From Pontimicrobium sp. IMCC45349 (GTDB taxonomy: Bacteria > Bacteroidota > Bacteroidia > Flavobacteriales > Flavobacteriaceae), in assembly GCF_047219225.1 (NCBI RefSeq), contig NZ_CP178208.1, positions 2,804,001 through 2,868,000 of the forward strand: a stretch of DNA of 64,000 nucleotides, in the 5' to 3' direction. Positions 2,680 through 58,419 of the stretch are shown here, one piece after another; position 1 is the first letter of the stretch, and the number at the start of each line of letters is the position of its first letter. The translations under genes and the position numbers were made by a program. The notes beneath the pieces are model-generated. The model was not told where the DNA came from. It did not search any database and saw only the letters and a list, made by a program, of their open reading frames with translations.

Positions 2680-5220
2680 ATGAAAAAAATATTACTCTTA
2701 TTTTATGTCTTAATGGGAATTACATGCTGCACAATAACTGCGCAAAATGTAAACATTCCCGATATTAACTTCAAAAACTATTTGTTAGCAGATGCAGCAA
2801 TTAACACCAATTCAGATTCTGAAATTTCTGTTGCAGAAGCGCAAGCCTTTACTGGCGAATTATTAATTAACGGTTTATCAATTTCAGATTTAACAGGTAT
2901 TGAAGCCTTTGTCAATATTACACGTTTAGATTGTTACAGTAATAATTTAACTGCCTTAGATGTTAGTAATAACCTTGCCTTAACGCGTTTGCACTGTGCT
3001 AGTAATCAAATTACAATTTTAGACATTAGTGCTAATACGCAAATTGTAGATATTCAATGCCATAACAATGGGGTTTTACAAGAGTTAAACATTGCCAATG
3101 GTAATAACAGTAACTTCACTTACATGAAAGCCTATGGTAATAGTTTATCGTGTATTCAAATAGATGCAGGCTATACGCCACCTGCAGATGCTGGAATTTA
3201 TAGTCCTGGATGGACCAAAGGTGGTATTGCACAATATAACGCTGATTGTGCCACTTTAAACCAAATTGTAACCATTCCAGATACTAATTTTAAAAATTAT
3301 TTAGTAAACGCTAGTAGTATCAATCTTAATGGTGATACCGAAATTTCTGTGGCCGAAGCACAAGCTACAACAGAGTTACTTATTAACGGTTTGTCAATTT
3401 CAGATTTAACAGGTATTGAAGCCTTTACCAATTTGACACGTTTAGATTGTTACACCAATAATTTAACCGCAATAGATGTTAGTAATAATTTAGCCTTAAC
3501 GCGTTTACACTGTGCTGATAATCAAATACAATCCATAGATATTAGTGCCAATACGCAGATTACAGATATGCAATGTCATAATAACGGTGTTTTAGATCAA
3601 TTAAATATAGCCAATGGTAATAACAGCAATATAAACTGGATGAAAGCTTATGGTAATCCAAGTTTAATTTGTATTCAAGTTGATGCAGGCTTTTCGCCAC
3701 CAGCAAACAGTGGTCAGTATGTTGTAGGTTGGACTAAAGATAATCAAACAAGCTATAGTGAAAATTGTATGCCATCAGTTTATTATGTAGATGCAAATGC
3801 AACAGGAGCCAATGATGGTAGCTCATGGGCAGATGCTTTTACAAACGTAACAGACGCTTTAGCACTTACCAATTTAAATGATGCTGTTTGGGTAGCAAAA
3901 GGAACGTATACTTTAGTAGACAAAAATACACCAATAGCTGTTAATACAAACCAAGTAGATATTATTGGTGGTTTTTCTGGTACAGAAACAACTTTAGCAG
4001 ATAGAGATTTAAGGGCAATTCACACCACAAATGCTACCATTTTTACTGGTGATATCAATGGCGATGATATTGATGGAGATTTTACATCTAATAAAACCGA
4101 TAATGCAGAGCGCTTATTTGAAATACGAAACAGTAACGTCACTTTTGATGGTATTATTTTTGAAAACATATACGACACCTCTCAATCTGGTGGCATACAA
4201 GAAAATGGTGTAGTATTTATACCAAATAGTGTAAATATTAACAACCTGAAGATCAAAAATTCAGTGTTTAGAAACAACTATTCTAACGGCTATTTGCTTA
4301 AAATGAGAACACTAAATGCTGGGTTATTTTTAGAAAACACCACATTTGTAAATAATACGTCTGTTAACTTAGGATTGGTTTATGTACAATCTGATAGTAC
4401 AAACGGTTATATTTTTACACGTTGGGCAAATGTTTTGGTTGCAGATAACGATATTAATCTTTCAGCATTACATATTTTCAGGTCAGATTTTGGTAATGGA
4501 AGCACTTTAGATGTTGTCATTAATAATAGTACGTTTGTTAATAATGATTATAACGGTACTTATGGTAATTCTATTACGGCATCAGGTAATGGTAGTGTAA
4601 ACCTAAATGTTAATAATTCTATCTTTTGGCAGAATACTGTTAATGGTGCAGCATCAACTAGAGATATTTCCAACGGACAGGATCAGACTTACGATGTGTT
4701 TATTCGAAATTCTATTGCAAATGTACCAGCAAACGCAGGAACTTATGGTACTTTTTCGGCAACAAACCTCACTACTTTAAACCCAGCAACCGATAATTTG
4801 AATTTAGACAGCGATTACAAACCAACAGTAGCTTCAAATTATATTATAGATCAAGGTGATAATGCTTATTACGATGTAGCTCTATTTGGCGATTTAGACT
4901 TATCAGGAAATGATAGAATTTTTAATACTACTATAGATTTGGGTGTTTATGAATACAATTCAACTTTAGGTATAGATGAAATTTCTAACATGGAAGATTG
5001 GCTTGTGGTGTATCCAAACCCAGTTTCCGAAACGCTACATATTAAAACTTTTGGTCAAGACTTAAAGCGTTTGGCATTATATAGTGTTAATGGGCAGAAA
5101 GTATTAGAGCAAAATGAAGTTCAAAATAGTGTTGATGTTTCAAATCTTCCTTTAGGAGTGTATTTTTTACAAATAGAAACGGCTCAAGGTGCTACAACTA
5201 AAAAAATTATCAAACAATAA
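2680..5220 (+). CDS. secreted leucine-rich-repeat / right-handed beta-helix protein with a T9SS C-terminal sorting domain
   Basis: Signal peptide. Two LRR-like blocks (LTRLDCYSNNLTALDVSNN...), then pectin-lyase-like repeats (NSVFRNN, NSTFVNN, NSIFWQN). The C-terminal ~75 aa (VYPNPVSETLHIK...LPLGVYFLQIETAQGATTKKIIKQ) resemble the Por/T9SS secretion tail. Confidence 0.75.
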   Translation: MKKILLLFYVLMGITCCTITAQNVNIPDINFKNYLLADAAINTNSDSEISVAEAQAFTGELLINGLSISDLTGIEAFVNITRLDCYSNNLTALDVSNNLALTRLHCASNQITILDISANTQIVDIQCHNNGVLQELNIANGNNSNFTYMKAYGNSLSCIQIDAGYTPPADAGIYSPGWTKGGIAQYNADCATLNQIVTIPDTNFKNYLVNASSINLNGDTEISVAEAQATTELLINGLSISDLTGIEAFTNLTRLDCYTNNLTAIDVSNNLALTRLHCADNQIQSIDISANTQITDMQCHNNGVLDQLNIANGNNSNINWMKAYGNPSLICIQVDAGFSPPANSGQYVVGWTKDNQTSYSENCMPSVYYVDANATGANDGSSWADAFTNVTDALALTNLNDAVWVAKGTYTLVDKNTPIAVNTNQVDIIGGFSGTETTLADRDLRAIHTTNATIFTGDINGDDIDGDFTSNKTDNAERLFEIRNSNVTFDGIIFENIYDTSQSGGIQENGVVFIPNSVNINNLKIKNSVFRNNYSNGYLLKMRTLNAGLFLENTTFVNNTSVNLGLVYVQSDSTNGYIFTRWANVLVADNDINLSALHIFRSDFGNGSTLDVVINNSTFVNNDYNGTYGNSITASGNGSVNLNVNNSIFWQNTVNGAASTRDISNGQDQTYDVFIRNSIANVPANAGTYGTFSATNLTTLNPATDNLNLDSDYKPTVASNYIIDQGDNAYYDVALFGDLDLSGNDRIFNTTIDLGVYEYNSTLGIDEISNMEDWLVVYPNPVSETLHIKTFGQDLKRLALYSVNGQKVLEQNEVQNSVDVSNLPLGVYFLQIETAQGATTKKIIKQ
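2746..3783 (+). repeat. tandem duplication (2 x ~519 bp) inside the LRR protein gene
   Basis: Two ~173-aa protein blocks are near-identical (NVNIPDINFKNYL...QYNADC vs IVTIPDTNFKNYL...YSENC). Long stretches are identical at the nucleotide level (e.g. ttaacggtttRtcaatttcagatttaacaggtattgaagccttt). Confidence 0.85.
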
Positions 5221-13340: not shown

Positions 13341-13551
13341 TTGAAGGTTCGTTTAACGGTCTAGTATAAGAAAAGTAGGGCAGTTGTATGCGTTACTTTT
13401 CGGATTAAGCTAAAGCCGAATTTTTAAATTTTGTTATTTATCTTTTCTCCTTTTAATATACCAAATTTAAAAATTTGGCGACTTGACAAATACGCACAGA
13501 CCTTTCGATTAAGCACTTTTTGCCCTATTTTTTTTATACATTGTTAGGCAC
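13341..13551. repeat. B-type cassette-flanking element, copy B1 (3' flank of the DUF262/HEPN cassette)
   Basis: It begins with GAAGGTTCGTTTAACGG, the same core as at 20758, 34026 and 53946. About 200 nt are homologous to 20755-20904. The inner end (tatacattGTTAGGCAC) overlaps the stop codon of the 13544..14050 gene and is the inverted partner of GTGCCTAAC at 15146. Confidence 0.8.
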
Positions 13552-14050
13552 TGGCTTCTTCTTGATTTAATTCCGTTTCAATGAACCTAATCACTTCTAT
13601 TGTTTTGTTTAAATAATTTTCCAATTTTATTATTGTAATGTCAGAATCTCTACCGTGTGCAATATTATGTCTGTCTTTTAAAATATAATTTATAGCTGCA
13701 CCACGATTTTCCTCTTGCAAGTAATCCCGTAATAAGTCGTGCCAATCAGGATTAAAGGACTTTGCTAATGCTCTTATTTTTTCACTATTAGCATTTTGTA
13801 TTTTATAGAGTTGTGATTTTGCATAAGTCAAAACAACAGATGGCTCACAACTATTTTCGGCAATATCAGTAAAAGCGTGGTAAACAGAATTTTCTATAAA
13901 TCCGGAACAGAGAACACAAATATATTTTGTTAAATGCGACCTCAATTCGTCATCAGGTTCGAATTCCTTGGCTTTTAATATTAATTGCTGAATACGATTG
14001 TATTGTATATTTAATTCGGGATTATTGAACATATTGATTAATATATTCAT
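13544..14050 (-). CDS. HEPN-domain protein (predicted RNase/toxin-type effector), partner of the DUF262 protein
   Basis: 168 aa with an R-x4-H HEPN motif (RHNIAHG) near the C-terminus. It overlaps the upstream DUF262 gene by 29 nt. Confidence 0.6.
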   Translation of the reverse strand: MNILINMFNNPELNIQYNRIQQLILKAKEFEPDDELRSHLTKYICVLCSGFIENSVYHAFTDIAENSCEPSVVLTYAKSQLYKIQNANSEKIRALAKSFNPDWHDLLRDYLQEENRGAAINYILKDRHNIAHGRDSDITIIKLENYLNKTIEVIRFIETELNQEEASA

Positions 14051-15116
14051 TGAACAATCTGTGTCTTTCTGCTACAACTTTATCATCTGAAGTAGCTCTA
14101 GTTATTGAATCAACAAAATCTTGATTTTGATATAGAGTATTTATGTTTTGGGCAAATGCCTCAAAATCAATATTTTCATCTATTCTGTTTGCTATTCCAA
14201 CCATTAAAACCTCAAATGCTGATGCATTAAATACTCTGTCTGGTCTAAATGCAGATTTGCCAATATTTTCAAGTATAATATCGGTAGTTCTTTTAAAAAT
14301 CGAACTTAATCTTTCTAATTCTTCTTCTGTTGGGTTTCTATAACGGCCATTAAACTTATTTAAAAACTCCTTTAGAGGTTTACTATATCTATCTAGCGAA
14401 TTATACATAGCAAAAAATCTCAATATCATTTCTTGGTCTTTAAGTCTATTATTCTTTTTACCGAATAATTCTCTCCAAGCTGGATAATCATTTAATTCTG
14501 CAATTAATTCATTCAACTTCCCAATATAAATTGCTGCTCTAATTTCTTGGGGTGTAAGTTTTCTTCCACCTGTATTTAATCGTTCAAAAACGTGATAAAT
14601 ACTGGTGTTATCATCAGTTGGTGTCTCTTGTTTAATTATTGTAGCGTGAATAATTGAATCATCAAGATTTATTCTGTCATCTTCTTCTAACTCTTCATAA
14701 GTTTTGCCTTCGAATTTTTCTTGAACGTTTTTGAGCCTAAATACTTTTTTTCTTGTATCTCCTTCTTTGGGATTGAAAAAGCCTTCATAGAAAAAAAGCA
14801 ATGATTTTAATCGTTGTTGTCCGTCAATTACTGAAAGTTTATTAGAATCACTCTCTTTGGCTAAAAATACTCCTGGTACTGGAAGTCCAAGCAATAAAGA
14901 CTCAACGAGTCTAGAAGCTTCAGCTTGATTCCAAACATAATCTCTCTGAAATGGCGGTATGAAAATGTCTCCTCTTTTAAGTCTTTTTACAAGTCCTTCT
15001 ACATCATAATCAGCTCCATAACTTGATATTCCATAAATTTGAGGTGAAGATGAATCTTCATTTTCTTCAACATCAATTACTGGGTCATCTATATCTTCTG
15101 TTTCGTATCCATTCAT
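14022..15116 (-). CDS. DUF262 (ParB/Srx-like nuclease-fold) domain protein
   Basis: Motifs FQRDYVW and VIDGQQRL are hallmark DUF262 (GmrS-like N-terminal domain) signatures. 364 aa. Confidence 0.75.
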   Translation of the reverse strand: MNGYETEDIDDPVIDVEENEDSSSPQIYGISSYGADYDVEGLVKRLKRGDIFIPPFQRDYVWNQAEASRLVESLLLGLPVPGVFLAKESDSNKLSVIDGQQRLKSLLFFYEGFFNPKEGDTRKKVFRLKNVQEKFEGKTYEELEEDDRINLDDSIIHATIIKQETPTDDNTSIYHVFERLNTGGRKLTPQEIRAAIYIGKLNELIAELNDYPAWRELFGKKNNRLKDQEMILRFFAMYNSLDRYSKPLKEFLNKFNGRYRNPTEEELERLSSIFKRTTDIILENIGKSAFRPDRVFNASAFEVLMVGIANRIDENIDFEAFAQNINTLYQNQDFVDSITRATSDDKVVAERHRLFNEYINQYVQ

Positions 15117-15145: not shown

Positions 15146-15262
15146 GCTTGTGCCTAACGTATTTATATAAACACGTTTTAATGGTTTATATAAAAGTGTT
15201 AAACGAAGTTAGCGTTTTTACGTCAGAAAATCAATACGTATAAATACGTAATTTTATAGTAT
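15146..15262. repeat. A-type cassette-flanking element, copy A1 (5'/promoter-side flank of the DUF262/HEPN cassette)
   Basis: ~110 bp near-identical to 24106-24222 and 34874-34980. Contains TTTATATAAA-N13-TTTATATAAA, GTTAAACGAAGTT (inverted partner of the B core) and TACGTA-N4-TACGTA. It lies 37 nt upstream of the start of the 14022..15116 gene. Confidence 0.85.
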
Positions 15263-15297: not shown

Positions 15298-15870
15298 TTA
15301 TCCTTTTCCGTATCCAAGCCAACTTACTATTAATTGATTAATAACAAAAACAGCAAGAATTATTATTAAAACATAAGAATACTTGATAATCTTTTCTTTT
15401 ATGGATGTTTTTTGAGTTCCATCAAAATGAGTAAGAGTTTTAATTACGTTTATAATTTTTGGTTTGTTGATGTAAAGAATTACTATTAGCATTAATAGAT
15501 ATAGTATAGCGCTCGCTAATGCTCCGTATTTATCAAGAAAAAAAATGTCAAATACAATTACATTTACCATTATTGGAATTAATATTAAGGTTCCAATTAG
15601 CTTTGTTCTATTAAAAAGAAGTAAAGTAGCACCTACAATTTGGCAAACTCCAATAAATAATACATAACCATATGAACGTCCCATAAATACCCAAGCTAGT
15701 TCAAAATTTGGGATTTGTTTTATAGGCATTGATTCTATGTGAGTAGGTATTAAATCTGGTGTGTAGAATTGTCCGCCAATTGCTTTTCCTAGTCCATATG
15801 CAGCAAGAAAAAAGAATACATAAAAACGACATACAATTTCAATAGTTTCTTTAATGTTGATTTTTTTCAT
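15298..15870 (-). CDS. hypothetical integral membrane protein (DoxX-like multi-TM)
   Basis: 190 aa with 4-5 hydrophobic helices. No catalytic motif. Confidence 0.45.
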   Translation of the reverse strand: MKKINIKETIEIVCRFYVFFFLAAYGLGKAIGGQFYTPDLIPTHIESMPIKQIPNFELAWVFMGRSYGYVLFIGVCQIVGATLLLFNRTKLIGTLILIPIMVNVIVFDIFFLDKYGALASAILYLLMLIVILYINKPKIINVIKTLTHFDGTQKTSIKEKIIKYSYVLIIILAVFVINQLIVSWLGYGKG

Positions 15871-15872
15871 GA

Positions 15873-17687
15873 CTAAAATGAAGATTTAAGTGAGGCTTTG
15901 TAATTCATAGTATCATCTGTTAAAATTAGTTCTTGATCGGTTAGTTTTATTCTTAAATCTTGCATACCATTATATTGATGTCCATTGATAAAAAACTCAT
16001 TTTGATTAATCTGAGTTAATTCTACTTTTTTAATGCTGCTAGTTCTTATGTTATCATCCATAAACATACCTTGAATTTGATTTTCTGCGTTGATTCCTAA
16101 AACAAAACCTACATCTTCATTTTCAAAATGAAATCTAATATTTACTGTTTTATTACCTTTTTTGCCTTCGATTTTATAGATGTTGTAAGATTTAAAAACG
16201 CCTGCTTGATTAATAAAATAGGACCACATTCCTTTTAACTGGTTTAAGCCATTTTCAGAACTTAAAAAGTCTTTCATGTCTTTATTTGCATAATCAGAAA
16301 GTCCATTGAAATTTTGGGTACTCATAGCATTTGCAAAAAACAAAGCGGTTTTACAAGCTTTATTGTCTGTTGTCGCATCTCTTGAAAATTGATAAGTAAA
16401 AACAGACCAAGGTGTTTTTCCAATTGTTTCTAGATAAAACGTATTGTTTTGCTTTTTTAGCATGAAAGCATGATCGTCATCTAATGTATACGTTTTATTA
16501 AAGTCAGGAATATTTGAGTTGTTAACCTTAGTAACTTTTGGGAGTAGCTTTGGTTCTTTACCTTGAAAAATTGCAATAATGGCATCAATTATTTCTCCAT
16601 CAACAAATTGGTCTTTACCTTGAAAAGAACTTTCTGTAATTAAGTCTGTAGAAGTGGCATTAGATAAGATGATAATCTTTATGTTTTTTTGTGGTAATGT
16701 CCCAATTATAGAGGCTACACCGGGAAGTAAACCAGTGTGATTAACCCATTTTTCGCCATCTTTATATTCAATTCTCCAGCCTAAACCGTATTCTGAATTA
16801 TTAACACCTCTAGATTGTGTATAACTATAAAGTTTATTTACAGATGCTGGTTTTAGGAGATTTCCGTTTTCTAAAGCAGTCATTAGGTTGTGTAAATTTT
16901 CAGTAGTAGAATTAATGTTTCCAGCTCCAATTATCCATGAAGGGTGAATAGAGCTTGTTAATTTTTTAAATTCATTCATTCCTAATCCGCTATGCGGAAA
17001 AGCTTTTTGATCTAATGTTTTATAGTCGTTGACAGCAGTTTGTGTCATGTTGGAAGGTTTAAAAACGGCTTGTTCCATATAATCTTTATAGGACTGTTTG
17101 CTTACAGCTTCAATGATATATGCTAAAAGTGTATATCCAAAATTATTGTATTCGTATCCAGTTCCTGGTTCAAATTTTAATTTTGAATCTTTGAATTTTT
17201 CAAAAAGCTCATTTCGTGTAATTGGAGTTTTTACAGGCATTAATCCGTTGCCTTGATCATCAATTCTACCAATATTGGCTTGCATACCAGAACTGTGGTT
17301 TAATAAATGACGAATGGTTATTTTTTTAGAAAAATCAGGGATAAAGTTTGGGAAAAATGAACTAATAGGTGTTTCTAATGTAAGTTTTTCTTGTTCTACT
17401 AATGTCATTATTCCTATAGCAGTCAAAGGTTTAGTGATAGAAGCAATGCTGAAAATAGTATTGCTGGAATTCTTTTTGTGATTTTCAACATTAGCATAAC
17501 CAAAACTCTTATTGTAAATAATATTATCATTTTGACTTATTAAAACGTTTCCTGTAAATCGATTATAATGAGCATAACTTTCAAAAACATTATTAATGTT
17601 TTTTTGTAAAGCTTTGTCAGGATTAGTTTGTCCAAAAGTCTGTAGTATAAAAAATATGATCATTATAATTGTTATAGATTCCTTCAT
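15873..17687 (-). CDS. secreted beta-lactamase-family serine hydrolase (class C/PBP-like) with a C-terminal extension
   Basis: Signal peptide. S-x-x-K active-site motif in the expected N-terminal context (FSIASITKPLTAIGIM). 604 aa. Confidence 0.7.
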   Translation of the reverse strand: MKESITIIMIIFFILQTFGQTNPDKALQKNINNVFESYAHYNRFTGNVLISQNDNIIYNKSFGYANVENHKKNSSNTIFSIASITKPLTAIGIMTLVEQEKLTLETPISSFFPNFIPDFSKKITIRHLLNHSSGMQANIGRIDDQGNGLMPVKTPITRNELFEKFKDSKLKFEPGTGYEYNNFGYTLLAYIIEAVSKQSYKDYMEQAVFKPSNMTQTAVNDYKTLDQKAFPHSGLGMNEFKKLTSSIHPSWIIGAGNINSTTENLHNLMTALENGNLLKPASVNKLYSYTQSRGVNNSEYGLGWRIEYKDGEKWVNHTGLLPGVASIIGTLPQKNIKIIILSNATSTDLITESSFQGKDQFVDGEIIDAIIAIFQGKEPKLLPKVTKVNNSNIPDFNKTYTLDDDHAFMLKKQNNTFYLETIGKTPWSVFTYQFSRDATTDNKACKTALFFANAMSTQNFNGLSDYANKDMKDFLSSENGLNQLKGMWSYFINQAGVFKSYNIYKIEGKKGNKTVNIRFHFENEDVGFVLGINAENQIQGMFMDDNIRTSSIKKVELTQINQNEFFINGHQYNGMQDLRIKLTDQELILTDDTMNYKASLKSSF

Positions 17688-17912
17688 TTTAGTATGGTTT
17701 TATAATTAAGATGAAGCAAGAATACTATCTAATAATCGTAGTTTAAAAAGAATGTGATTACTAGACCTTTCTATGTGGTAGATGTATGAAATAAAGTGAA
17801 ATATGTTATACTTCACATAAATATAGAGTTTGGTCACTTTAAGTACTTAGTTTAACCCATTGTAGGTTTTAAAACTATATAAAACCCTATTTTTGAGATT
17901 TAAACACTTTGG

Positions 17913-18944
17913 ATGAAAAAATATTTAGAAACAATACTACACGTTTTAATTTGGGGAATTTCCTATGTGTTGATCTTAAATTTCATAAACACTATTTCCG
18001 ATTTTAGAAAAGATGAAGGTCCATTTTGGCTTGCCATACTATTTGGAATGTTTATGAACCAAATTTTATTTTATACTACGGCTTTTTATATCGTTCCAAA
18101 GTTTTTACGATTAAAAAAAATAGCACTTCTAGTTATCTCTTTAATAGGTGTTTTTGTATTTATAAATTTATTGGAAAGCATTATAGATTACTATTGGTTG
18201 GTTGGATTTTTTTCAAGTGAGAGTGAATCTTTTGTAACCTATTTGAGTTATAATTCTATCAGTAGCTTTTTTATACTTTTATTAGGTTTGTCATATGCTT
18301 TAATTAAGTATTGGTTTCAAAATGAAAAATTAAAAAGAACCTTATATGAAGAGAAGTTAACTACAGAAATGACTTTTCTTAAGACTCAAATTAATCCTCA
18401 TTTTTTGTTTAATGTACTTAATAGTTTTTATGCTAAGGCATTAAAAAATGATGTGCCAGACTTGGCAGATGGTATATCTAAATTAGCAGATTTAATGCGT
18501 TATATGGTGTATGAAATTAATGAAGATAGCATTGCCTTAGAAAAAGAAATCCATCATCTTAAAAAGTTTATTCAGGTGTATCAGTTACGTATTGCTGAAG
18601 ATGACGATGTGTTTATTAATTTTACTGTTAAAGGAACTGTTGAGAACGTGCAAATTAGTCCTATGTTGCTTATTCCTTTTGTAGAAAATGCCATTAAACA
18701 TGGAATTGATCCTAAAACTAAATCTGTTATAAACATAACTTTGGAGGTTATAGAAAACAGCTTGGTATATAAAGTAACCAATACAGTTCATAAAAACGCG
18801 TATGATTTGAAGGATACTTCTTCTGGGTTTGGTTTAGATAATTTAAAGAAGAGACTAACTATTTTATATCCCAATTTACATACTATAGAAACCAAAGAAG
18901 AAGATGGATATTTCGTTTCTTTACTTAAATTGCAAATAGAATAA
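17913..18944 (+). CDS. LytS-type membrane sensor histidine kinase (5TM sensor + His_kinase domain)
   Basis: N-terminal multi-TM region, then H-box LKTQINPHFLFNVLNSFYAKAL and an HATPase-like C-terminus (GFGLDNLKKRL). Confidence 0.8.
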   Translation: MKKYLETILHVLIWGISYVLILNFINTISDFRKDEGPFWLAILFGMFMNQILFYTTAFYIVPKFLRLKKIALLVISLIGVFVFINLLESIIDYYWLVGFFSSESESFVTYLSYNSISSFFILLLGLSYALIKYWFQNEKLKRTLYEEKLTTEMTFLKTQINPHFLFNVLNSFYAKALKNDVPDLADGISKLADLMRYMVYEINEDSIALEKEIHHLKKFIQVYQLRIAEDDDVFINFTVKGTVENVQISPMLLIPFVENAIKHGIDPKTKSVINITLEVIENSLVYKVTNTVHKNAYDLKDTSSGFGLDNLKKRLTILYPNLHTIETKEEDGYFVSLLKLQIE

Positions 18945-18951
18945 CTGTGTT

Positions 18952-19662
18952 ATGAATTATATAATAATTGATGATGAACCCGCTGCTATAGATGTTCTTG
19001 AGTTTCATCTTAGTAAGATTCCGTTTATGGAGTTAAAAGCAACATTCAGAGATCCTTTGGATGCTCTTGAGTATCTTCAAAAACACACTGTTGATCTTCT
19101 TTTTTTGGATATTAATATGCCAAAGATATCTGGAATTAAATTTCCTAAATTTTTAGAAAAAGCACCACTTATTATTTTTACAACAGCTTATTCAGAGTAT
19201 GCTTTAGAAAGTTATGAGCTTAAAGCGATAGATTATTTATTAAAACCAATTGGTTTTGAGCGGTTATTACAAGCAGTAATGAAAGCAAAAGAGGCTTTGA
19301 ATCAAAGTGCAGAAGGCGTAAGGTCAAACGCTGAAACTTCTCAAGAAAGACTTGAACAGACTGTTTTTATAAAAAGTGGTTCTGAGTTTCACCAACTATC
19401 CATTCAAGATATAAAATACATTGAAAGCGATGGTAATTATGTAACCTTCCATACAACCAAGCGTTCTATTTTAGCGCGTTATAAGATATCTGAAGTTATA
19501 GAGCTGTTACCTAAGCAGTTTTTTGCAAGAATTCATCGTTCCTTTATTGTAGCTATTAAACATATAGAAATAGTTAAAAAACATTGTGTTATTATAGATG
19601 AAATTGAAATTCCTATTAGTAGCAATTATAGAGATGATTTTTTAGCTATTATTCGCACATAA
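18952..19662 (+). CDS. LytTR-family response regulator
   Basis: REC domain (IIIDDEP..., LLFLDINMP) plus a C-terminal LytTR domain (FFARIHRSFIVAIKHI). It starts 8 nt after the kinase gene. Confidence 0.85.
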   Translation: MNYIIIDDEPAAIDVLEFHLSKIPFMELKATFRDPLDALEYLQKHTVDLLFLDINMPKISGIKFPKFLEKAPLIIFTTAYSEYALESYELKAIDYLLKPIGFERLLQAVMKAKEALNQSAEGVRSNAETSQERLEQTVFIKSGSEFHQLSIQDIKYIESDGNYVTFHTTKRSILARYKISEVIELLPKQFFARIHRSFIVAIKHIEIVKKHCVIIDEIEIPISSNYRDDFLAIIRT

Positions 19663-19686
19663 AGTTGTCTAGGAAAGACCTGTTAT

Positions 19687-20631
19687 TTATTGTAGCTTGT
19701 ACATAAGTTTAATATGTCTTTCTATTTCTGCATCAAAATCATTATAGAGTAATTTGTATTTATCTCCCAATACTGTTTTAACTTTTAGAATAGTATCATT
19801 AGGCTTTTTATTATTCTTATAATCAGATTGCACTTGTTTCCAGACATGAGATAACAAGTCTAAATCTCTAATTACTGAATTTACATTTGTAGTGTTACCA
19901 TGTCCTGTTAAAACATGTGTTGGATTTAATTTAACGATAAATTTAAGAGTATCTAGTAAATTAGGAATATTGCCATGATCAGTAATTACAGGCATCCAGT
20001 TAGAGCTTAATACGTCACCTCCAAAAATGATTTTTTGTTTAGGTAACCACATTAAAATATCACCTGGAGAATGCGCGTCATTAGAAAAGATAAGTTCTAC
20101 TTCTAAGTTGCCAAAATTGCGTTTTTCGTTTTTGCTAATTATTAAGTTTGGATAAGAAAGTTTTGTAGTACCAATAGTTCCATTGGTGACACGTTTGTAA
20201 AATGCAACATCATCTTCTCCATATTTTTCCATGGTTTTGAAGGTTTTGTCACTAGCAATTATTTCAATAGCTGTATCTGCAAAAGCAGCATTACCTAGCC
20301 AATGGTCAGCATGACTATGCGAATTAATAATCCAACGTACAGGTTTATTAGTAATCGATTGAATTGTTTTTTTTATTTGGTTACCTATTGTTTGAGATGA
20401 ACCAGAATCAAATAACAATACACCATCATTAGTGATTACAAAATGTACATTAGAGTTCCAACCTTTATTTTCTGGAGTTGGTAATCCAAATGAAGGTGAA
20501 ATAATACTGTAAATATTGTTAGTAATCTGTTTGACTTCAAACTCTATGGTAGTAGTATTTGCATTTACTATGTTATTACCAAAGATGCTAATGAGGCAAA
20601 ATGAGATTATTATGGCCTTAATTTTTTTCAT
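19687..20631 (-). CDS. secreted metallo-beta-lactamase-fold hydrolase
   Basis: Signal peptide and the H-x-H-x-D-H zinc motif (NSHSHADHWLGN). Confidence 0.7.
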   Translation of the reverse strand: MKKIKAIIISFCLISIFGNNIVNANTTTIEFEVKQITNNIYSIISPSFGLPTPENKGWNSNVHFVITNDGVLLFDSGSSQTIGNQIKKTIQSITNKPVRWIINSHSHADHWLGNAAFADTAIEIIASDKTFKTMEKYGEDDVAFYKRVTNGTIGTTKLSYPNLIISKNEKRNFGNLEVELIFSNDAHSPGDILMWLPKQKIIFGGDVLSSNWMPVITDHGNIPNLLDTLKFIVKLNPTHVLTGHGNTTNVNSVIRDLDLLSHVWKQVQSDYKNNKKPNDTILKVKTVLGDKYKLLYNDFDAEIERHIKLMYKLQ

Positions 20632-20754: not shown

Positions 20755-20904
20755 GAGGAAGTTCGTTTAACGGTCTTGTATATGAAAAGTAGCGGATTTT
20801 ACACACTAACTTTTCGGAATATAACAGACTTTAAATTTATAAAATTCATTTTCGTTTAAGCACTAAAACAGCTATTTTTTATATACGTTGTTGTGTTTTC
20901 GTAC
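20755..20904. repeat. B-type cassette-flanking element, copy B2 (3' flank of the R-M cassette)
   Basis: It starts GAGGAAGTTCGTTTAACGGTCTTGTATATGAAAAGTAG..., homologous to B1 over ~150 nt. The inner end (atatacgttgttgtgttttcgtac) is the inverted partner of gtatgaaacacaacgtattta at 24106. Confidence 0.8.
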
Positions 20905-21013: not shown

Positions 21014-22405
21014 TTATTTCAGATATATTTCGTCTTTCACATAACTTGCGTTTAGCCAAAAACAATGTTTTGTATATTCAGTCAAACCTGTTAATTTATC
21101 TACTACAGGTAATTCATAAGTATCTGCTGCATTTCTCGCGTGTGGTCTAACGTGACTAATTCTGTTTTCAGTTTTCTTTGGGAAATAAGTTTTTCTCACA
21201 CCTTTTTCAGTTACTTCTTTTACGATTTCTCCACTTTTAACTGTCTTTACCATTTCTTGCCAAACATTTTTGGCTTCAACAATATCAGAGTAGGGCATAT
21301 TCCAAAATTTCACTTTTCTTAAAATCAAATTTTCTCCCTCAAATTGATAAAAGACGAAGAAAAATTTACTTTCCAAAATGTTCTTAAAATCTGAATCTTC
21401 CCAATCTGTTTCAACAAGTTCTAGATATTCAAATGTAGGAAACGAAATATCTTCTTTTGGTAAATCATTTTCTTTAAGTCGAATAGTTTTGACTTGAATA
21501 TCTGCTTTTTCAAATTCCTCTATCTTTTGACCGAGTTCAAGTCCAAGAATAGCATTTGTAAGATTTGCAAAATAACTTTTAGCTTTCTGGTTTAATTCTA
21601 AACCCAATTCTTGTTCAATTTGTTCAGCGGATTTTCCATAAAATGGGTGGAATTTTAGAATTACTATTTCTTCTATTGAACGTACTTTTTCTAAAATTTC
21701 TGGCTGCTCAATTATTTTTCCATAAACAGCTGTTTCTTCTTGAGCAATATTTGCGATTATATGATTGACATAACCTTGTTTTAAAGAATATGCTCTTTGT
21801 TTTGCTTTTTCATTATTAAATGGCTGGTCTCTATATGATTTTAGAGCTGTTGAGCCTTTTGTACAAGCTCCAAGATAAAATGTATCTCCTTCTGATAATT
21901 CGTGAGCTTTTCCGTCTTTTATTTTTTGATTGATAAATTCCCAATCTTGCTTAATAATTTTTAAATCTTCGTTCGGATATTGCCAACCGTCAACTAACTT
22001 TATTATGTAGTCAAGTAAATTTAAATCTCTGTCGTGTAGATAGAATACTAAAAGTAAATGGGCATTTTTCTTCCAAAATGAACTAGTTTCAAACTCTTCT
22101 TTGTGAACTTCTAAATAATTAATGATATTTAAAACAAGTCTTTCTTTTGAACGATATTCTCCATTTTTTAAAGTTTTTAATGGACTTGATTTTAGTTCAA
22201 TTCCTGCTTCTTTAAAATCAGGTTCTGCATCAGAATTTGGTTCGTAACCAAAATAGAATTTTTCTAAAATCTGACCGAAATTTCCCTTTCCTTTATAACC
22301 GTGTTTTTCAATTTCAACTCCACAAGCTTGTCTTAAAGTTTGGTTTTTAAGTTGTTTTGCAAATTCTATTATTGAATCTGCCGAAGTTATATCAAGCATA
22401 TTCAA
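21014..22405 (-). CDS. type II restriction endonuclease, MutH/Sau3AI family
   Basis: The N-terminal block GKGNFGQILEKFYFGYEPNSDAEPDFKEAGIELKSSPL matches the MutH/Sau3AI catalytic signature D-x6-E-x-K. 463 aa. It overlaps the upstream C5-methyltransferase gene by 14 nt. Confidence 0.7.
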   Translation of the reverse strand: MNMLDITSADSIIEFAKQLKNQTLRQACGVEIEKHGYKGKGNFGQILEKFYFGYEPNSDAEPDFKEAGIELKSSPLKTLKNGEYRSKERLVLNIINYLEVHKEEFETSSFWKKNAHLLLVFYLHDRDLNLLDYIIKLVDGWQYPNEDLKIIKQDWEFINQKIKDGKAHELSEGDTFYLGACTKGSTALKSYRDQPFNNEKAKQRAYSLKQGYVNHIIANIAQEETAVYGKIIEQPEILEKVRSIEEIVILKFHPFYGKSAEQIEQELGLELNQKAKSYFANLTNAILGLELGQKIEEFEKADIQVKTIRLKENDLPKEDISFPTFEYLELVETDWEDSDFKNILESKFFFVFYQFEGENLILRKVKFWNMPYSDIVEAKNVWQEMVKTVKSGEIVKEVTEKGVRKTYFPKKTENRISHVRPHARNAADTYELPVVDKLTGLTEYTKHCFWLNASYVKDEIYLK

Positions 22406-23639
22406 ATTGGTTTATCTGTTTATAAAGTTCTACTCCAATTTTTTCAATTATGCCTACAACTAATGCATTTCCCATAAAAAAGGCTCGTTTAGTGTCTGTA
22501 ATTCCTTCCAATTTGGTGTGATTATCTGGAAACATATTTAATCTCTCTAATTCAATTGGTGTCAATCTTCTTAAACCTCTATCAGAAACAACTACGTGTT
22601 TAAACCTTGAAGGTGATTTTCCACCTTCTCCTGTTATTATTGTTCTAGAAGCATTATCTAGAGCGTCAGGATAAATCATTCCGCCTTCACTATAATTGTA
22701 TTCAAAACCTTCTTTTGTTTTTCTTTTTTCTTTTTTAGCACCTTTTAAATATTCCCATTTTGGTTTGTCGTTTTCATCAATGAAAAATTCAGGTGTTACT
22801 TCTCCGTTTTGTAGAACATCTGCTAAAACAGTTTTTTGCCCATCGTAATTTGGCTCTGTTTTAGTTGTGAAAACTTTATCATTAATTAATAAGCCTGTAT
22901 TTTGAAAAGGCGATAGCTTTCCATTCTTATTGAAATTGTCTGTTATTTCTACTAAATCTCCTTTTAATTCAACTTCTTGAATTGCATTTGTTTTTGCAAC
23001 AGGAAAAGCATTTGCTATTGTTCCTTCTTCTATTAACCAATTTGTTTTATTAGATTTTTTAAGTCTTTTGTAAACGTCAGTTGATTTGTGATAACCTATA
23101 AAGAAAACTCTACGTCTTCTTTGTGGCATTCCATATTCAGCTGCATTTATAACTCGCCATTCTACTGCATAACCTAAATCATTTAAACTTTGTAACATAA
23201 CAGCAAAATCACGACCTCTTTGTTTTGCTGGGGATTTTAAAAGTCTATCAACATTTTCTAAAAAAAGATATTTCGGCTTGTTCTTTTTGTTCTCTAAAAT
23301 TTTATGAATTGACCACCAAAGAACACCTTTTTTACCTTTTAAACCTTTTGAATTATGCAATGTAGTTGCAACAGAATAATCTTGACAAGGAAAACCTCCA
23401 ACTAATAAATCGTGATCTGGAATTTCTTCTACATTTCTTGTTACTACTTCGTTTATATCTTCGTTAGAATGATTTTCATTTCCAAAACGAGCTTCATAAA
23501 CCATTGATGCGTGTTGCGTTTTGGTTGACGGTTCCCATTGATTACTCCAAACAACTTCGTAATTGCTTTTTTCAAGTCCAAGACGAAATCCTCCAACTCC
23601 TGCAAATAATTCTGCAACTCTCATTTTCTTATTTTCCAT
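22392..23639 (-). CDS. DNA (cytosine-5)-methyltransferase
   Basis: Motif I (ELFAGVGGFRLGL), motif IV (GGFPCQDYS) and motif VI (ENV) of C5 methyltransferases. 415 aa. Confidence 0.85.
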   Translation of the reverse strand: MENKKMRVAELFAGVGGFRLGLEKSNYEVVWSNQWEPSTKTQHASMVYEARFGNENHSNEDINEVVTRNVEEIPDHDLLVGGFPCQDYSVATTLHNSKGLKGKKGVLWWSIHKILENKKNKPKYLFLENVDRLLKSPAKQRGRDFAVMLQSLNDLGYAVEWRVINAAEYGMPQRRRRVFFIGYHKSTDVYKRLKKSNKTNWLIEEGTIANAFPVAKTNAIQEVELKGDLVEITDNFNKNGKLSPFQNTGLLINDKVFTTKTEPNYDGQKTVLADVLQNGEVTPEFFIDENDKPKWEYLKGAKKEKRKTKEGFEYNYSEGGMIYPDALDNASRTIITGEGGKSPSRFKHVVVSDRGLRRLTPIELERLNMFPDNHTKLEGITDTKRAFFMGNALVVGIIEKIGVELYKQINQFEYA

Positions 23640-23937
23640 TTTCTTGAGCTTTATAATAGTTAATTTTTTCTTCTGCTACTTTTAATATTTCGGAAGTCGA
23701 TTCCGTGTATTTTAGTTCGTCTGCAATTTTTTCCGAATACCAATTTATGATAAGTTCGTTTTCGGGAAGTTCGTAAAACTTTGCAAGTCTTACGATTTGT
23801 TCCATTGTCGGTTTTCTTTCGTTTTTCTCGAATTTGCTAATCAGAGATTGATCAATATCTACTTCAGCTGCAACTTTTCGAAGTATCAATTCTTTTTCCT
23901 CTCTGGCACATTTTAAAGTGTCGCCTAATGTTTTCAT
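23629..23937 (-). CDS. XRE-family HTH transcriptional regulator, probable controller (C) protein of the R-M operon
   Basis: A 102-aa helix-turn-helix protein (LRKVAAEVDIDQSLISKFEKNERKPTMEQIVRLAKFY). It is the first gene of the C-M-R operon and overlaps the methyltransferase start by 11 nt. Confidence 0.65.
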   Translation of the reverse strand: MKTLGDTLKCAREEKELILRKVAAEVDIDQSLISKFEKNERKPTMEQIVRLAKFYELPENELIINWYSEKIADELKYTESTSEILKVAEEKINYYKAQENGK

Positions 23938-24105
23938 TGGTTAAAATTGTTTTAGACAAATATTGTCCAAATTTATAAAAACATTTTGGATTTCCAACTT
24001 TTAATTCGGATTATTTCGAGCGTTGGGAAATTTTAGCTCTTTTGGTTTTTAGAGCATTGGAAATTAGCGTTGGCAAAAACCAAAAGTGCTAAAATATGCG
24101 GCTGG

Positions 24106-24222
24106 TAGTATGAAACACAACGTATTTATATAAACACGTTTTAATGGTTTATATAAAAGTGTTAAACGAAGTTAGCATTTTTGAGCTTAAAAATCAATAC
24201 GTAGAAATACGTAATTTGAGTA
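24106..24222. repeat. A-type cassette-flanking element, copy A2 (5' flank of the R-M cassette)
   Basis: Near-identical to A1 and A3 (GTATTTATATAAACACGTTTTAATGGTTTATATAAAAGTGTTAAACGAAGTTAGC...AATCAATACGTAGAAATACGTAATTT). Confidence 0.85.
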
Positions 24223-24229
24223 TTTATGG

Positions 24230-24961
24230 TTATAGTTTTATTGTGATTTTTTCGCCTTGTTCAGTCATAGGTTGAATAGAGTCTATATTGCTCCATTTTT
24301 TATTAGCACTAGGTATTTGTTCAGGATATAAGTGGTATACACCAAGCATTTTTGAATCAATTTCAATTTCTTGTTCTTTTGCATTTAGTAAAATCCAATA
24401 AGGCACAAAAGCCCAGTCCATATTTTTAATTTTTCCAATTGTTTCTGGATTGGTTGTATCTCCAGATAAATAAATTCTTTTTCCGTGCCAAGTTATGAGG
24501 TAAGAATAATGCCTAAAAGAAATTCCAAAAACTTTATGTGTAGTTTTAAATGCTTTAATTTCAAAGTTATCTAAAGAGTTGTTTAGGTTTTCTAATTCAG
24601 ATATGTTTGATACACCATATTTTTGTCCACCTTTTTCTTTTAAAATTTTGTTTAGGTGTTTTTTAGAATAATGGTCGGAATGTTTATGTGTAAAAATAAA
24701 GATTGAATTGTGCTTAATACTATCAAGTTCTGTACTATCAAATTCCATGTAACCATGCGCTCCAGATTTATATGGAAAATCTGTGTATATATGAGTTGTA
24801 CCATCAGTTATATATAAGCCACAGTTTCCCAAGAATTTGATATTAATTTCTTTGGATTGACTATGTGTAAAGCTAGAAACGAAAATTAAAATTATAGTTG
24901 TAAAATGTGTTTTTCCTGTCTTGAAAATAGGCATAATTTGAGTGTTTGAATTATTTATCAA
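24230..24961 (-). CDS. secreted metallo-beta-lactamase-fold hydrolase
   Basis: Signal-like N-terminus and an H-x-H-x-D-H motif (FTHKHSDHYS). Confidence 0.65.
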   Translation of the reverse strand: MINNSNTQIMPIFKTGKTHFTTIILIFVSSFTHSQSKEINIKFLGNCGLYITDGTTHIYTDFPYKSGAHGYMEFDSTELDSIKHNSIFIFTHKHSDHYSKKHLNKILKEKGGQKYGVSNISELENLNNSLDNFEIKAFKTTHKVFGISFRHYSYLITWHGKRIYLSGDTTNPETIGKIKNMDWAFVPYWILLNAKEQEIEIDSKMLGVYHLYPEQIPSANKKWSNIDSIQPMTEQGEKITIKL

Positions 24962-25039
24962 ATTAAAGCACTAATCAATTGTGGTTTGAATAAAAGTGAC
25001 GAAACAAGCTTAATTTTGACAAATGAATACGCTAAATAA

Positions 25040-25843
25040 TCACGCTTCATTTAAACTGCTTTTAATTTTAGTATAGTATGTTTTTGAAAGTGGGATAGTG
25101 TTTTCAAAATCTTTGAAACATATTTTCGCATTTTGAGAATTGCCCTTAACTTCTTTAACGTTTTCCATGTTTAAAAGATAAGAGCGATGACACTTTACTA
25201 AAAAAGGTAATTGTTGATTTGTTTTTAAAAGCGTTTGTCTAAAGGTTTTAGATGTTACAGTATTGTTATCACTTACAAAAAAAATATCAATATAGTTTTC
25301 TACTGCTTTTATATAGAGTAGGTCCTTTCTATTAAGCTTTAATGTTTCATTCTTATTTTCACCAGTTATAATTACTGTGTTTTTTGGAAGTGGGATAATT
25401 AGTTCCCCAAACTTATTGCGTAAAAAGACTACTAAAGGTGAAAAAATTGGAATAAATACTAAAACGATGTGTTGTAGGTAAAGGAAATATGTTTTTATAG
25501 AATAGCTTTCACCATTTATAAAGCGATGATTATATAGATAGATTATAGTTCCAGAAATTGTAAAAAAGATTATTGTAGAAATAATTTCGTTACCGACAGT
25601 CCAAATTTTATTAGAACTATTATATAAAATGTTCTCTAAACTACTTTGTATAAAAAAGGTTGAAAAAAAGAGTATCCCAAAACCTGATAAAATCAAGTTT
25701 TTATAGTTAGATTCATAGTTGTTGGTATCAAAAGGCTGAAGAAATATTATAATAAACGCCAATATGCACCCTAAAATAAAACCAACTAATAATTTATCTT
25801 TTAAGGATGCTATAAAAGGTATTTGTTTATTAAGAAAAGTCAA
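25040..25843 (-). CDS. membrane-anchored LytTR DNA-binding domain protein (no receiver domain)
   Basis: Four or more N-terminal hydrophobic helices followed by a LytTR-type C-terminus (FLVKCHRSYLLNMENVKEVKG). 267 aa. Confidence 0.65.
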   Translation of the reverse strand: MTFLNKQIPFIASLKDKLLVGFILGCILAFIIIFLQPFDTNNYESNYKNLILSGFGILFFSTFFIQSSLENILYNSSNKIWTVGNEIISTIIFFTISGTIIYLYNHRFINGESYSIKTYFLYLQHIVLVFIPIFSPLVVFLRNKFGELIIPLPKNTVIITGENKNETLKLNRKDLLYIKAVENYIDIFFVSDNNTVTSKTFRQTLLKTNQQLPFLVKCHRSYLLNMENVKEVKGNSQNAKICFKDFENTIPLSKTYYTKIKSSLNEA

Positions 25844-25874
25844 TTTTATGGTCTTCAGTTTTTGTTTGTATAAT

Positions 25875-30773: not shown

Positions 30774-30967
30774 TCTTAAATTGTAATTGGATTTAAAACG
30801 TATAAATCTTAAAAGATGTGTTATTTAAACACTTAATCATTATGAAAATGAGAGGAACGAACGATAATAAATCTTAATTAGATTTTTTATTATTCTATAT
30901 CTGTGTAACAGCAATTCCTTTTAATAAATTAGATTAAATACACTCGCTTATAAGCGAGTGTATGATA

Positions 30968-33034: not shown

Positions 33035-33069
33035 GTTTATTATTTGGTTTTGTTTAAGATTTAATATGT

Positions 33070-34020: not shown

Positions 34021-34165
34021 ATTTGGAAGTTCGTTTAACGTGTTCGTGTATGGTTTGTGCGGAATATTCCGTGAGGAATATTCCGAGTGTTCTGTTGTTT
34101 CTTTAAAGTTAGGAAATTTAATTGAAGTTCATGTGATAGCATGAACTATACACGTTGTTAGGCAT
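34021..34165. repeat. B-type cassette-flanking element, copy B3 (3' flank of the Zn-ribbon/membrane cassette)
   Basis: It starts GGAAGTTCGTTTAACG. It contains twin palindromes GGAATATTCC x2 (34062-34084) and a perfect 8-bp hairpin AGTTCATG-TGATAG-CATGAACT (34125-34146). The inner end tatacacgttGTTAGGCAT overlaps the stop of the 34158 gene and is the inverted partner of ATGCCTAA at 34874. Confidence 0.75.
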
Positions 34166-34529: not shown

Positions 34530-34551
34530 TACCGAAAAGTTGTTTCCATTA

Positions 34552-58407: not shown

Positions 58408-58419
58408 TATATTACTTTT

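Follow-up and report, generated by a model that had tools for sequence, protein, structure and literature searches.

Hairpin sites with attC-like boxes and a candidate outward promoter at exchangeable gene cassettes in a Flavobacteriaceae chromosome

The DNA analysed here, called the window throughout, is a 64,000-nucleotide stretch of a Flavobacteriaceae chromosome (Pontimicrobium sp. IMCC45349, contig NZ_CP178208.1, positions 2,804,001 to 2,868,000). It has ~31% G+C and carries dnaN, a gldG-like gene, phoH, purC and genes for proteins with type IX secretion system (T9SS) C-terminal domains. The subject of this report is a repeat family within it, element A, which is present in three full copies (A1 to A3) and one remnant (A4), and whose four copies can be aligned from ~15152 to 15254 in A1 coordinates. 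The arrangement TTTATATAAA-N13-TTTATATAAA was found exactly three times in the window, at 15162-15194, 24125-24157 and 34886-34918 (0.02 expected). TACGTA-N4-TACGTA is located at 15235-15250, 24198-24213 and 34958-34973 (0.08 expected) and nowhere else in the window, with a variant differing by one mismatch, TGCGTA...TACGTA, in A4 (58468-58483). The box GTTAAACGAAGTT is found at 15198, 24161 and 34921, with a one-mismatch copy at 58431. Conservation ends 36 nt (A1) and 33 nt (A3) before the start codons at 15116 and 34842, respectively, and at a distance of 178 nt for A2.

An earlier note on this DNA had taken A for a promoter/operator shared by defence genes, and its description of the window was largely borne out. 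The TACGTA pairs proved correct, including their retention in the truncated copy, and the conservation that it had put at about 35 nt before the start codons for A1 and A3 agrees with the measured distances. GTTAAACGAAGTT, which it had likened to a terminal inverted repeat (TIR), is indeed one half of such a repeat, with AGTTCGTTTAAC as its partner. The decamer pair with 13-nt spacing, ascribed to all copies, is present in the three full ones but absent from the truncated one, and its coordinates had been given one base low.

AGTTCGTTTAAC, the reverse complement of the A box, begins a second repeat family, B, at 13346, 20760, 34028 and 53947; expressed as the reverse complement of GTTAAACGAAGTT, copies with one mismatch start at 20759 and 34027, and related copies at 13346 and 53947. 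B elements are long hairpins, here of 130-205 nt and overall of about 120-210 nt. The first three each pair with the next downstream A, and each pair brackets one minus-strand module (C1 to C3). Read on the gene strand, a module consists of the A tail, CGTTTAAC, hairpin A, G/TTAGGC (the stroke marking the junction), ~35 nt, ATG, the genes, GCCTAAC, hairpin B and G/TTAAACGAAC. The terminal boxes are of the attC type, with CGTTTAAC...GTTAGGC on the gene strand of A1 and GCCTAAC...GTTAAAC in B1, the invariance of GTTAAAC being a product of site ascertainment. The inner end of B is the inverse of the left edge of A in both B1/A1 and B3/A3: the B1 terminus reads ...TTTTATAC-ATT-GTTAGGCAC and A1 begins with GTGCCTAAC-GTATTTATA..., and the B3 terminus reads GTTGTTAGGCAT and A3 begins with ATGCCTAAT. 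The stop codons of the open reading frames (ORFs) 13544-14050 and 34158-34598 are the TAA within the GCCTAAC boxes of B1 (GTTAGGCAC) and B3 (GTTGTTAGGCAT).

Comparison of ~90 A sites found in marine metagenomes and in genomes of other Flavobacteriaceae revealed that the pairing of the A stem is kept while the sequence of its arms varies. In place of TTTATATAAA, foreign sites have arm pairs such as GATATGAAAT with GTTTTATATC, CGTGTAT with ATACACG, CGAATAT with ATATTCG, and others. Among 84 distinct sites, compensatory changes were found in 11 of 13 stem pairs, and double-change cells numbered 107 compared with 39.6 in shuffles, none of 500 shuffles reaching the observed value. In the same covariation test, all slid stem registers scored much lower than the actual one. 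Judged by this pattern of sequence change, the TTTATATAAA pair represents the two arms of a stem, and thus a hairpin rather than an operator. The loop, CGTTTTAAT, is conserved in the genome matches, which were not chosen by it; it formed part of the pattern for the metagenome scan. At two stem positions the commonest pairs are G.U and U.G, so that the + strand, antisense to the cargo, folds better; it was the better folder in 69 of 92 A sites (opposite strand, 23) and in 18 of 21 B sites (opposite strand, 3). Folds predicted with DNA parameters yielded -25.7 kcal/mol for B1 and -22.0 kcal/mol for B3. The spacers of both A and B are unequal: on the + strand, the 5' arm has one of 6 nt and the 3' arm one of 3-4 nt. 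Neither A nor B was matched by an Rfam family, whether the window was searched at gathering thresholds or the surroundings of C1 at E ≤ 5; all that was returned were terminator-like matches at the purC terminator.

The distribution of A was determined in two scans. In species-representative genomes, a pattern of box plus tail, the latter being the stretch of ~45 nt on the other side of the hairpin from the cassette, returned 27 loci with 23 true sites, all of them in Flavobacteriaceae and in several genera (Gaetbulibacter, Lacinutrix, Algibacter, Winogradskyella, Mesoflavibacter, Flavivirga and others). In marine metagenomes, a pattern of loop plus box only returned at least 120 loci, with ~100 true sites among the matches listed. 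No similarity to A was found in plasmids. The sites occur in two states. In the empty state (17 sites) the left box TTCGTTTAAY lies directly against the A hairpin, and in the filled state a cassette-specific box, for example nnnCAAC, takes this position and B follows 0.65-3.9 kb away.

Orthologous sites were found in different states. On a syntenic contig (L022) of a Lacinutrix metagenome-assembled genome (MAG), purC (90% amino-acid identity) is followed by an empty A, one gene, the Na:Ala symporter gene and a small actP-associated gene, whereas in the window purC and the symporter gene are separated by 21.6 kb (13.3-35.0 kb) with three A sites. A filled and an empty metagenome site (L001 and L009) have flanks that are 99% identical and nearly the same hairpin. 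Two further sites (L023 and L058) share 2.4 kb of 97% identical sequence on the tail side, diverge to the left of AAT/GTACG and carry different cargo, and the same behaviour was seen for L031 and L059 in comparison with L142, and for L044 in comparison with L122. Gain, loss and replacement with breakpoints at the box are thereby documented. As the hairpin and the tail stay while the cargo and B change, we conclude that A is a resident site and that B travels with the cassette. The main property of A, which was absent from the reading in the earlier note, is that of a site-specific insertion point for mobile cassettes.

Cassettes with both ends available (n = 28) span 0.65-3.9 kb and hold one to three genes, with ~38 of their 43 ORFs pointing away from A. 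The ATG follows the junction at a distance of 10-35 nt in C1, C3 and most foreign cassettes. An inverted repeat of 8-14 nt, specific to the cassette, links the first bases of each one with the inner end of B (for example, GTTGTAAGCAAT... and ...AGCAGTAT-type pairs), and matched ends were more complementary than mismatched ones (mean score 7.9 versus 6.2, p = 3e-8). Complementarity between points 0.6-4 kb apart would be sensible only if the ends meet in a circular form, where it would extend the B stem. The foreign cargo includes PIN toxin-antitoxin pairs, Fic, a restriction-modification system, a superfamily 1 (SF1) helicase and an SMC-like ATPase, and also DUF2971, an IS110 transposase, glycoside hydrolases, hydrolases and an aminotransferase. 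The IS110-family (DEDD) transposase belongs to the cassette of a metagenome locus (L032) and is oriented opposite to the remaining cargo; members of the IS110 family are known to target attC and repetitive extragenic palindromic (REP) hairpins.

The tail of A was analysed for promoter elements. The sigma-A consensus of Bacteroidetes comprises TAnnTTTG at -12 to -5 and TTTG or TTG near -33, ~19-20 nt apart (PMC7366714, PMC9723704). The tails of A1 to A3 contain TTG-N20-TAACTTCG pointing into the cassette, with one mismatch to the sigma-A -7 box. Counts were made on 74 metagenome sites not selected on the tail, which gave the gene-strand consensus TTGAcTTTgT-aaAAAaaa-CTAAC-TTCGTTTAAC. The three positions of TTG are kept in 62, 69 and 58 of these sites and the A of the -7 TA in 71; TA..TTCG is present in 49, and TTG is exactly 20 nt upstream in 39, where only TA counts as free evidence because TTCG belongs to the search pattern. 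In 73 of 88 sites the tail motif lies at one fixed offset from the box. A scan for sigma-70 promoters and terminators gave counts equal to those in shuffles and is, therefore, uninformative for this phylum.

The surroundings of the tail are consistent with transcription starting there. In 61 of 71 sites the gene beyond it is co-directional, its end being a few tens of nucleotides away, and a loose criterion placed a terminator-like hairpin with a T-run directly upstream of the -33 TTG in 21 of 72 sites, of which several are clear-cut (e.g. L042, L061). Read-through would, therefore, often be blocked, and with the ATG at 10-35 nt from the junction, something between terminator and junction must drive the cassettes. 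The earlier suggestion that A supplies the promoter and the 5' leader is thus plausible: a promoter of their own could not be accommodated in C1 and C3, cassette ORFs nearly always point away from A, and the TTG-N20-TAnnTTCG tail is conserved. C2 has its own control region on the minus strand (23950-24100), with a near-perfect 21-bp hairpin (24030-24050 and 24075-24095), a perfect consensus TTG-N20-TAAATTTG at ~23997-23967 as promoter candidate with the same spacing as in the A1 tail, and a GACAATATTTGTC palindrome just before the ATG of the controller gene, which by its sequence is likely a C-box. As C2 is a restriction-modification system, this hairpin and promoter candidate fit its need for autonomous control by the controller protein. 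From motif and spacing, the tail of A is likely a Bacteroidetes sigma-A promoter reading into the cassette. The features of the window are compiled in Table 1.

Table 1. Elements A and B, their parts, and the cassettes in the window. For A copies, the strand is the direction facing the cassette genes.
Feature	Position	Strand	Description and basis
A1	15152-15254	-	upstream of C1; repeat family, alignment, covariance model (trained on foreign A copies) 60.8 bits
A1 junction box GCCTAAC	15152-15158	+	on the gene strand G/TTAGGC, first bases of C1; complementary to GTTAGGCAC at the B1 inner end
A1 hairpin	15160-15197	+	inverted repeat, predicted fold, covariation in 84 sites
A1 arm 1	15160-15172	+	includes TTTATATAAA at 15162-15171
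A1 loop	15174-15182	+	conserved CGTTTTAAT
A1 arm 2	15184-15197	+	includes TTTATATAAA at 15185-15194
A1 box GTTAAACGAAGTT	15198-15210	+	fits GTTRRRY; partner of AGTTCGTTTAAC at the outer end of B elements
A1 candidate sigma-A promoter	15204-15234	-	-33 TTG 15234-15232, 20-nt A-rich spacer, -7 TAACTTCG 15211-15204; reads toward the cassette
A1 TACGTA-TAAA-TACGTA	15235-15250	.	small palindrome adjoining the candidate -33; sub-lineage feature
A2	24115-24217	-	upstream of C2; repeat family, alignment, covariance model 61.1 bits
A3	34875-34977	-	upstream of C3; repeat family, alignment, covariance model 68.8 bits
A4 remnant	58428-58487	-	tail and mutated box GTTAAAGGAAGTT, without hairpin; alignment, covariance model 18.7 bits
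B1	13346-13551	-	hairpin site carried by C1; outer box GGTTCGTTTAAC; arms GTATAAGAAAAGTAGGGCA and TGCCCTATTTTTTTTATAC; inner box GTTAGGCAC
B2	20760-20895	-	hairpin site carried by C2
B3	34028-34165	-	hairpin site carried by C3; inner box GTTGTTAGGCAT
B4	53947-54080	-	orphan cassette-type hairpin adjoining the WD40 gene 54081-55127 at its 3' end; lacks an intact A partner
C1 cargo	13544-15116	-	two ORFs
C1 ORF	14022-15116	-	DUF262/GmrSD_N protein, NsnA / PD-T4-2_A-like
C1 ORF	13544-14050	-	RiboL-PSP-type HEPN protein
C2 cargo	21014-23937	-	three genes, restriction-modification system
C2 gene	23629-23937	-	helix-turn-helix (HTH) controller protein
C2 gene	22392-23639	-	C5 cytosine methyltransferase
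C2 gene	21014-22405	-	MutH/Sau3AI-like restriction enzyme
C3 cargo	34158-34842	-	two small proteins, neither matching any family
C3 ORF	34552-34842	-	96-aa zinc-ribbon-like protein
C3 ORF	34158-34598	-	146-aa membrane protein

Given these observations, we consider it probable, with some reserve, that A is an attC-like resident chromosomal recombination site fused to an outward promoter and serving integron-like cassettes dispersed in Flavobacteriaceae chromosomes. This proposal builds on the stem covariation, the empty and refilled orthologous sites with breakpoints at the box, the terminal complementarity, the cargo co-oriented with the tail, and the tail motif with its spacing. The core of A would consist of the box, a 12-14 bp AT-rich stem with the CGTTTTAAT loop, and a second box, GTTAAAC, and the mobile cassette of one to three genes followed by its own, longer B hairpin. 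In the circularised cassette, the first bases G/TTAGGC... would pair with the box before the B hairpin, ...GCCTAAC, and the circle would recombine with A at the box, resulting in A, cassette, B and GTTAAACGAAC. A and B would resemble terminal inverted repeats because the cassette with its B inserts at the A box. The promoter in the tail (TTG, 20 nt, TAnnTTCG) would transcribe through the hairpin into the promoterless cassette, like the cassette promoter (Pc) of integrons; GTTAAACGAAGTT would serve as a recombination box overlapping the -7 element, and TACGTA-N4-TACGTA would be a lineage-specific add-on upstream of -33. The scheme presumes that the sites fold as single strands, that a tyrosine recombinase acts in trans, and that the tail is active as a promoter.

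The reading of A as a shared promoter/operator, in which the TTTATATAAA pair and the TACGTA pair bind one transcription factor that co-regulates all modules, was weighed against this proposal. It draws on the position of A, which lies upstream of all three modules and in C1 and C3 at 33-36 nt from the ATG, on the promoter-like motif conserved in the tail, and on the TACGTA pair, which is confined to the A copies in the window. In the sub-lineage that has them, palindromes of the TACGTAG-N2-CTACGTA type adjoin the candidate -33, where a regulator could act. The palindrome conserved in sequence that characterises the operator of a transcription factor was, however, not found in the sites compared. 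The pairing of the decamers is kept by compensatory changes and their sequence is not. Of the motifs whose conservation in other genomes the earlier note had made a condition of its reading, GTTAAACGAAGTT is conserved and TTTATATAAA is replaced, and the TACGTA pair is present in just 3 of the 72 sites not selected on the tail, compared with 8 of the 16 sites found by the AAAATCAAT pattern. The pair belongs to a sub-lineage with the tail AAAATCAAT-ACGTAGAACTACGTA and lies at the place where other sites have the terminator of the upstream gene; from sequence and position it is possibly a small terminator, an insulator or a lineage-specific regulator/protein-binding site. A common regulon would lack obvious logic, because the cargo functions (glycoside hydrolases, aminotransferases, toxin-antitoxin pairs) are unrelated, and the B hairpins, the box exchange and the empty or alternatively filled orthologous sites would be left unexplained. 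Regulation by one shared factor is, hence, unlikely. What stands of the earlier reading is a structured element, shared by the modules and lying upstream of them; what falls is the role of its decamers as a sequence-specific operator. Defence is the theme of the cassettes in this window but not a general one, as other sites also carry cargo of different kinds.

According to another explanation, the B...A units are cargo transposons (mobile insertion cassettes, or similar to miniature inverted-repeat transposable elements (MITEs)) with TIRs of 12-25 nt, AGTTCGTTTAAC(GGTCT.GTATA), mobilised by a transposase encoded elsewhere, and the empty A sites are internal deletions. The outer ends are clear inverted repeats that reach past the box, the elements are multi-copy and dispersed, and one cassette carries the IS110 transposase mentioned above, all of which would fit. 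However, the flanks show no visible target-site duplication, the conserved tail is situated beyond the right repeat without an equivalent on the left, and orthologous sites retain the same A hairpin and tail while the cargo differs. Moreover, the inner inverted repeat that each cassette has of its own would be useless to a cut-and-paste transposon. When all flanking ORFs were clustered, only housekeeping families recurred, and neither a transposase family nor any other family recurred beside the sites. We regard this explanation as quite unlikely.

For the integron-like proposal, the recombinase is of particular relevance. Phmmer with IntI1 and jackhmmer with XerD, run on all reading frames of the window and of ~1 Mb of flanks (150 loci, >140 sites), gave no match; the sensitivity of the search was adequate, as XerD detects IntI1 at 3e-27. 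Likewise, neither the window nor the flanks contain a complete integron, that is, intI with attI and Pc beside an array. As no recombinase is linked to the sites, the enzyme would have to act in trans. B hairpins hold internal copies of CTTTTCGG(A/T)TAA and TTTTCGTTTAAGC, for instance at 13399-13413, 13503-13517, 20800-20815 and 20845-20860. This motif resembles the box region CTAACTTCGTTTAAC and the A loop CGTTTTAAT, and the copies could, by this likeness, be extra binding sites for the same protein.

The lack of a dedicated recombinase at any site is also what would be expected if the cassettes moved by site-specific recombination at A and B via the host XerC/XerD, in the manner of the folded attP of phage CTX or of pdif modules. 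Bacteroidetes have xerC and xerD, whose use by integrase-less elements of this phylum has been proposed (PMC3091885). GTTAAAC has a likeness to the outer part of XerD arms, but this is limited to ~6 of 9 bases of one arm. The dif site predicted for Flavobacteria is nnnnnCTATAA-TTTATA-TTATGTAAAAT (supplement of PMC3025954), and neither the duplex nor the folded form of A provides its ATAA-N6-TTAT inner arms or its 6-nt spacer. A and B were, accordingly, rejected as Xer/dif-type sites; they have no ATAA-N6-TTAT core, and only GTTAAAC is loosely like GTAAAAT. Movement by XerC/XerD at A and B is in our view a decidedly improbable explanation.

Hairpin and boxes were also found in Cellulophaga baltica phages, with two copies each in phi17:1 and phi10:1. 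The copies in phi17:1 (record positions 1407-1463 and 2381-2437) are situated between small early genes, both are followed by the same ~100 nt including the start of the next ORF, and one upstream gene terminates in the TAA of a CGCTAAC box. The proteins of the phi17:1 early operon beside the hairpins are an AAA ATPase, a single-strand-binding (SSB)-like protein and unknowns, and no recombinases were found among them. In a pattern scan of IMG/VR viral contigs only the two known Cellulophaga phages were matched. Both phages are lytic-looking and have no annotated integrase. They may exchange cassettes with host A sites or integrate at these.

That the hairpin of A is an RNA signal of the + strand (an intrinsic terminator or a signal for RNA stability or processing), at which cassettes cluster for unrelated reasons, is very unlikely. 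It would fit that the G.U wobbles favour the + strand, that a T-run follows on it, that the empty site of the Lacinutrix MAG lies directly after a convergent purC, and that in Cellulophaga phages the hairpin lies in sense orientation between co-directional early genes and is followed by T7. In filled sites, however, the T-run starts 15-20 nt past the stem, a distance too great for a canonical terminator. Sense transcripts to be terminated would usually be lacking, as at most chromosomal sites both neighbours are on the other strand (the gene past the tail in 61 of 71 cases, and almost all of the cargo), and the boxes, the B sites and the cassette turnover would not be explained.

Returning to A as an attC-like site with an outward promoter, the negative recombinase search is one of several points that weigh against it. 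The sites are dispersed, usually with one cassette each, and no long array lies beside an intI. The inner boxes read (G/A)TT plus variable bases, and several deviate from GTTRRRY (e.g. GTTGTGT). In canonical attC sites, the extrahelical bases sit on the arm opposite to that with the longer spacer here, so that the spacer asymmetry seems reversed. The -7 box is imperfect, with C where the consensus has T. Its two 'nn' positions are fairly conserved (A in 58 and C in 59 of 74 sites), and the argument for a promoter from free 'nn' positions was, therefore, dropped; as the whole CTAACTTCG block including 'nn' is conserved, it could be a protein-binding arm for recombination rather than an element of transcription. 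Finally, the phage hairpins lie in the same sense as the flanking genes and are without the TTGAC motif, which implies that the core hairpin would work at the DNA level regardless of the direction of transcription, the promoter being an addition of the chromosomal sites.

The wider claim that these sites constitute an undescribed integron-like cassette system in marine Flavobacteriaceae and some phages, with dispersed promoter-equipped landing pads, circularisable cassettes and a recombinase encoded elsewhere (an unrecognised IntI relative, or a host enzyme acting on folded single strands), is a possibility that we take seriously without leaning towards it. Membership of the integron family is not established, as the defining integrase, attI and array were not found. 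Literature on integrons or attC in Flavobacteriaceae or Bacteroidota, or on the box sequence, yielded no published description of these sites. According to the publication of IntegronFinder 2.0, Bacteroidetes had previously shown only In0, and the program detected one complete integron there, in Salinibacter ruber (PMC9024848).

Within the purC-symporter island of the window (13300-35030), the small cassettes C1 to C3 alternate with two larger segments. X1 (15298-20631) encodes DoxX-like and beta-lactamase-like proteins, a histidine kinase with a LytTR regulator, and a protein of the metallo-beta-lactamase (MBL) fold; X2 (24230-33819) encodes an MBL-fold protein, a LytTR protein, a 1632-aa DUF3686+AAA ATPase, and proteins of 688 aa and 249 aa. 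Both segments terminate in an A site, the hairpins being identical, and X1 and X2 may themselves have moved as large cassettes. The operon 25875-33819, comprising the 1632-aa DUF3686 / DUF7902 / AAA_5 ATPase, the membrane-anchored 688-aa protein (no Pfam match) and the 249-aa protein, may be an uncharacterised defence or repair system. A fourth cassette from B4 to A4 (53947-58487) was considered and rejected; A4 has no hairpin, no complementary box was found, and the region contains divergent kinase and regulator genes. A4 is an orphan A tail after a LytTR regulator gene, and B4 and A4 look like relics of rearranged or decayed cassette sites.

Elsewhere in the window, a gene for an 846-aa secreted protein (2680-5220) contains a 285-nt direct repeat (82% identity, 516-nt spacing; 2857-3657), an internal domain duplication. 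Tandem acetyl-CoA synthetase-like genes (628 and 635 aa) lie at 48174-52077, downstream of an actP-type transporter, a sensor kinase and a response regulator. A small ORF (40720-41139) encodes a protein with zinc ribbon and HTH that resembles a fragment of an IS1 InsA-type transposase. Its neighbours are two large lipoprotein genes and a porin gene, between which it is located, and the syntenic Lacinutrix contig does not have this segment.

If the proposal holds, integron-like biology would reach a new phylum through an attC-like cassette system in an abundant marine family, and folded-DNA site-specific recombination would have a wider range than known so far. The architecture would be a different one, in which many single-cassette, promoter-equipped sites take the place of one array beside an integrase. 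It would also provide a sequence-level account of how defence genes, toxin-antitoxin pairs and niche enzymes are shuffled among Flavobacteriaceae; the 21.6-kb island of the window has developed from a single purC-proximal site. The predicted circles, like the sites and junctions, have coordinates exact to the base, and A sites could serve as natural insertion and expression points for Flavobacteriaceae genetics.

Among known systems, the closest likeness is to integrons. As in attC, RYYYAAC and GTTRRRY enclose an imperfect palindrome of variable length (~57 nt in A, 120-210 nt in B), with literally GCCTAAC and GTTAGGC in C1 and C3, and structure is kept rather than sequence. The better-folding strand is antisense to the cargo, as is the recombinogenic bottom strand of attC. 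Like integron cassettes, those described here contain one to three genes, co-oriented and for the most part promoterless, with the 5' leader very short and the stop in or near the inverse core, and the cassette start is complementary to the box before the cassette's own site, as is expected of a circular intermediate. Each successive site combines parts of neighbouring cassettes into a hybrid, as in integron arrays, an external promoter leads into the cassette (Pc in integrons, a candidate from sequence here), and the cargo likewise comprises toxin-antitoxin pairs, defence systems and enzymes. Unlike in integrons, there is no intI or attI beside the sites, and the recipient site, itself a hairpin, is dispersed in many copies that follow ordinary chromosomal genes at their 3' ends. 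Different from attC are also the extended, strongly conserved box (AGTTCGTTTAAC or GTTAAACGAAGTT) and the conserved loop CGTTTTAAT. The host family, Flavobacteriaceae, sets the sites apart from known integrons; integrons are regarded as nearly absent from Bacteroidota.

With Xer-dependent elements (CTX attP, other integrative mobile elements exploiting Xer (IMEXs), Acinetobacter pdif), the cassettes share that modules without a recombinase of their own are bounded by inversely related sites and exchanged between replicons. In phage CTX, a folded single strand recombines with a duplex site. However, A and B are long hairpins and not 11-6-11 bp cores or the 28-bp dif of Flavobacteria. Correia elements and REP sequences or bacterial interspersed mosaic elements (BIMEs) are similar in being short, multi-copy, intergenic and hairpin-forming, in lying after genes and, for some, in carrying promoters or terminators. 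A and B are distinguished from these by bracketing exchangeable cassettes and by exhibiting box exchange.

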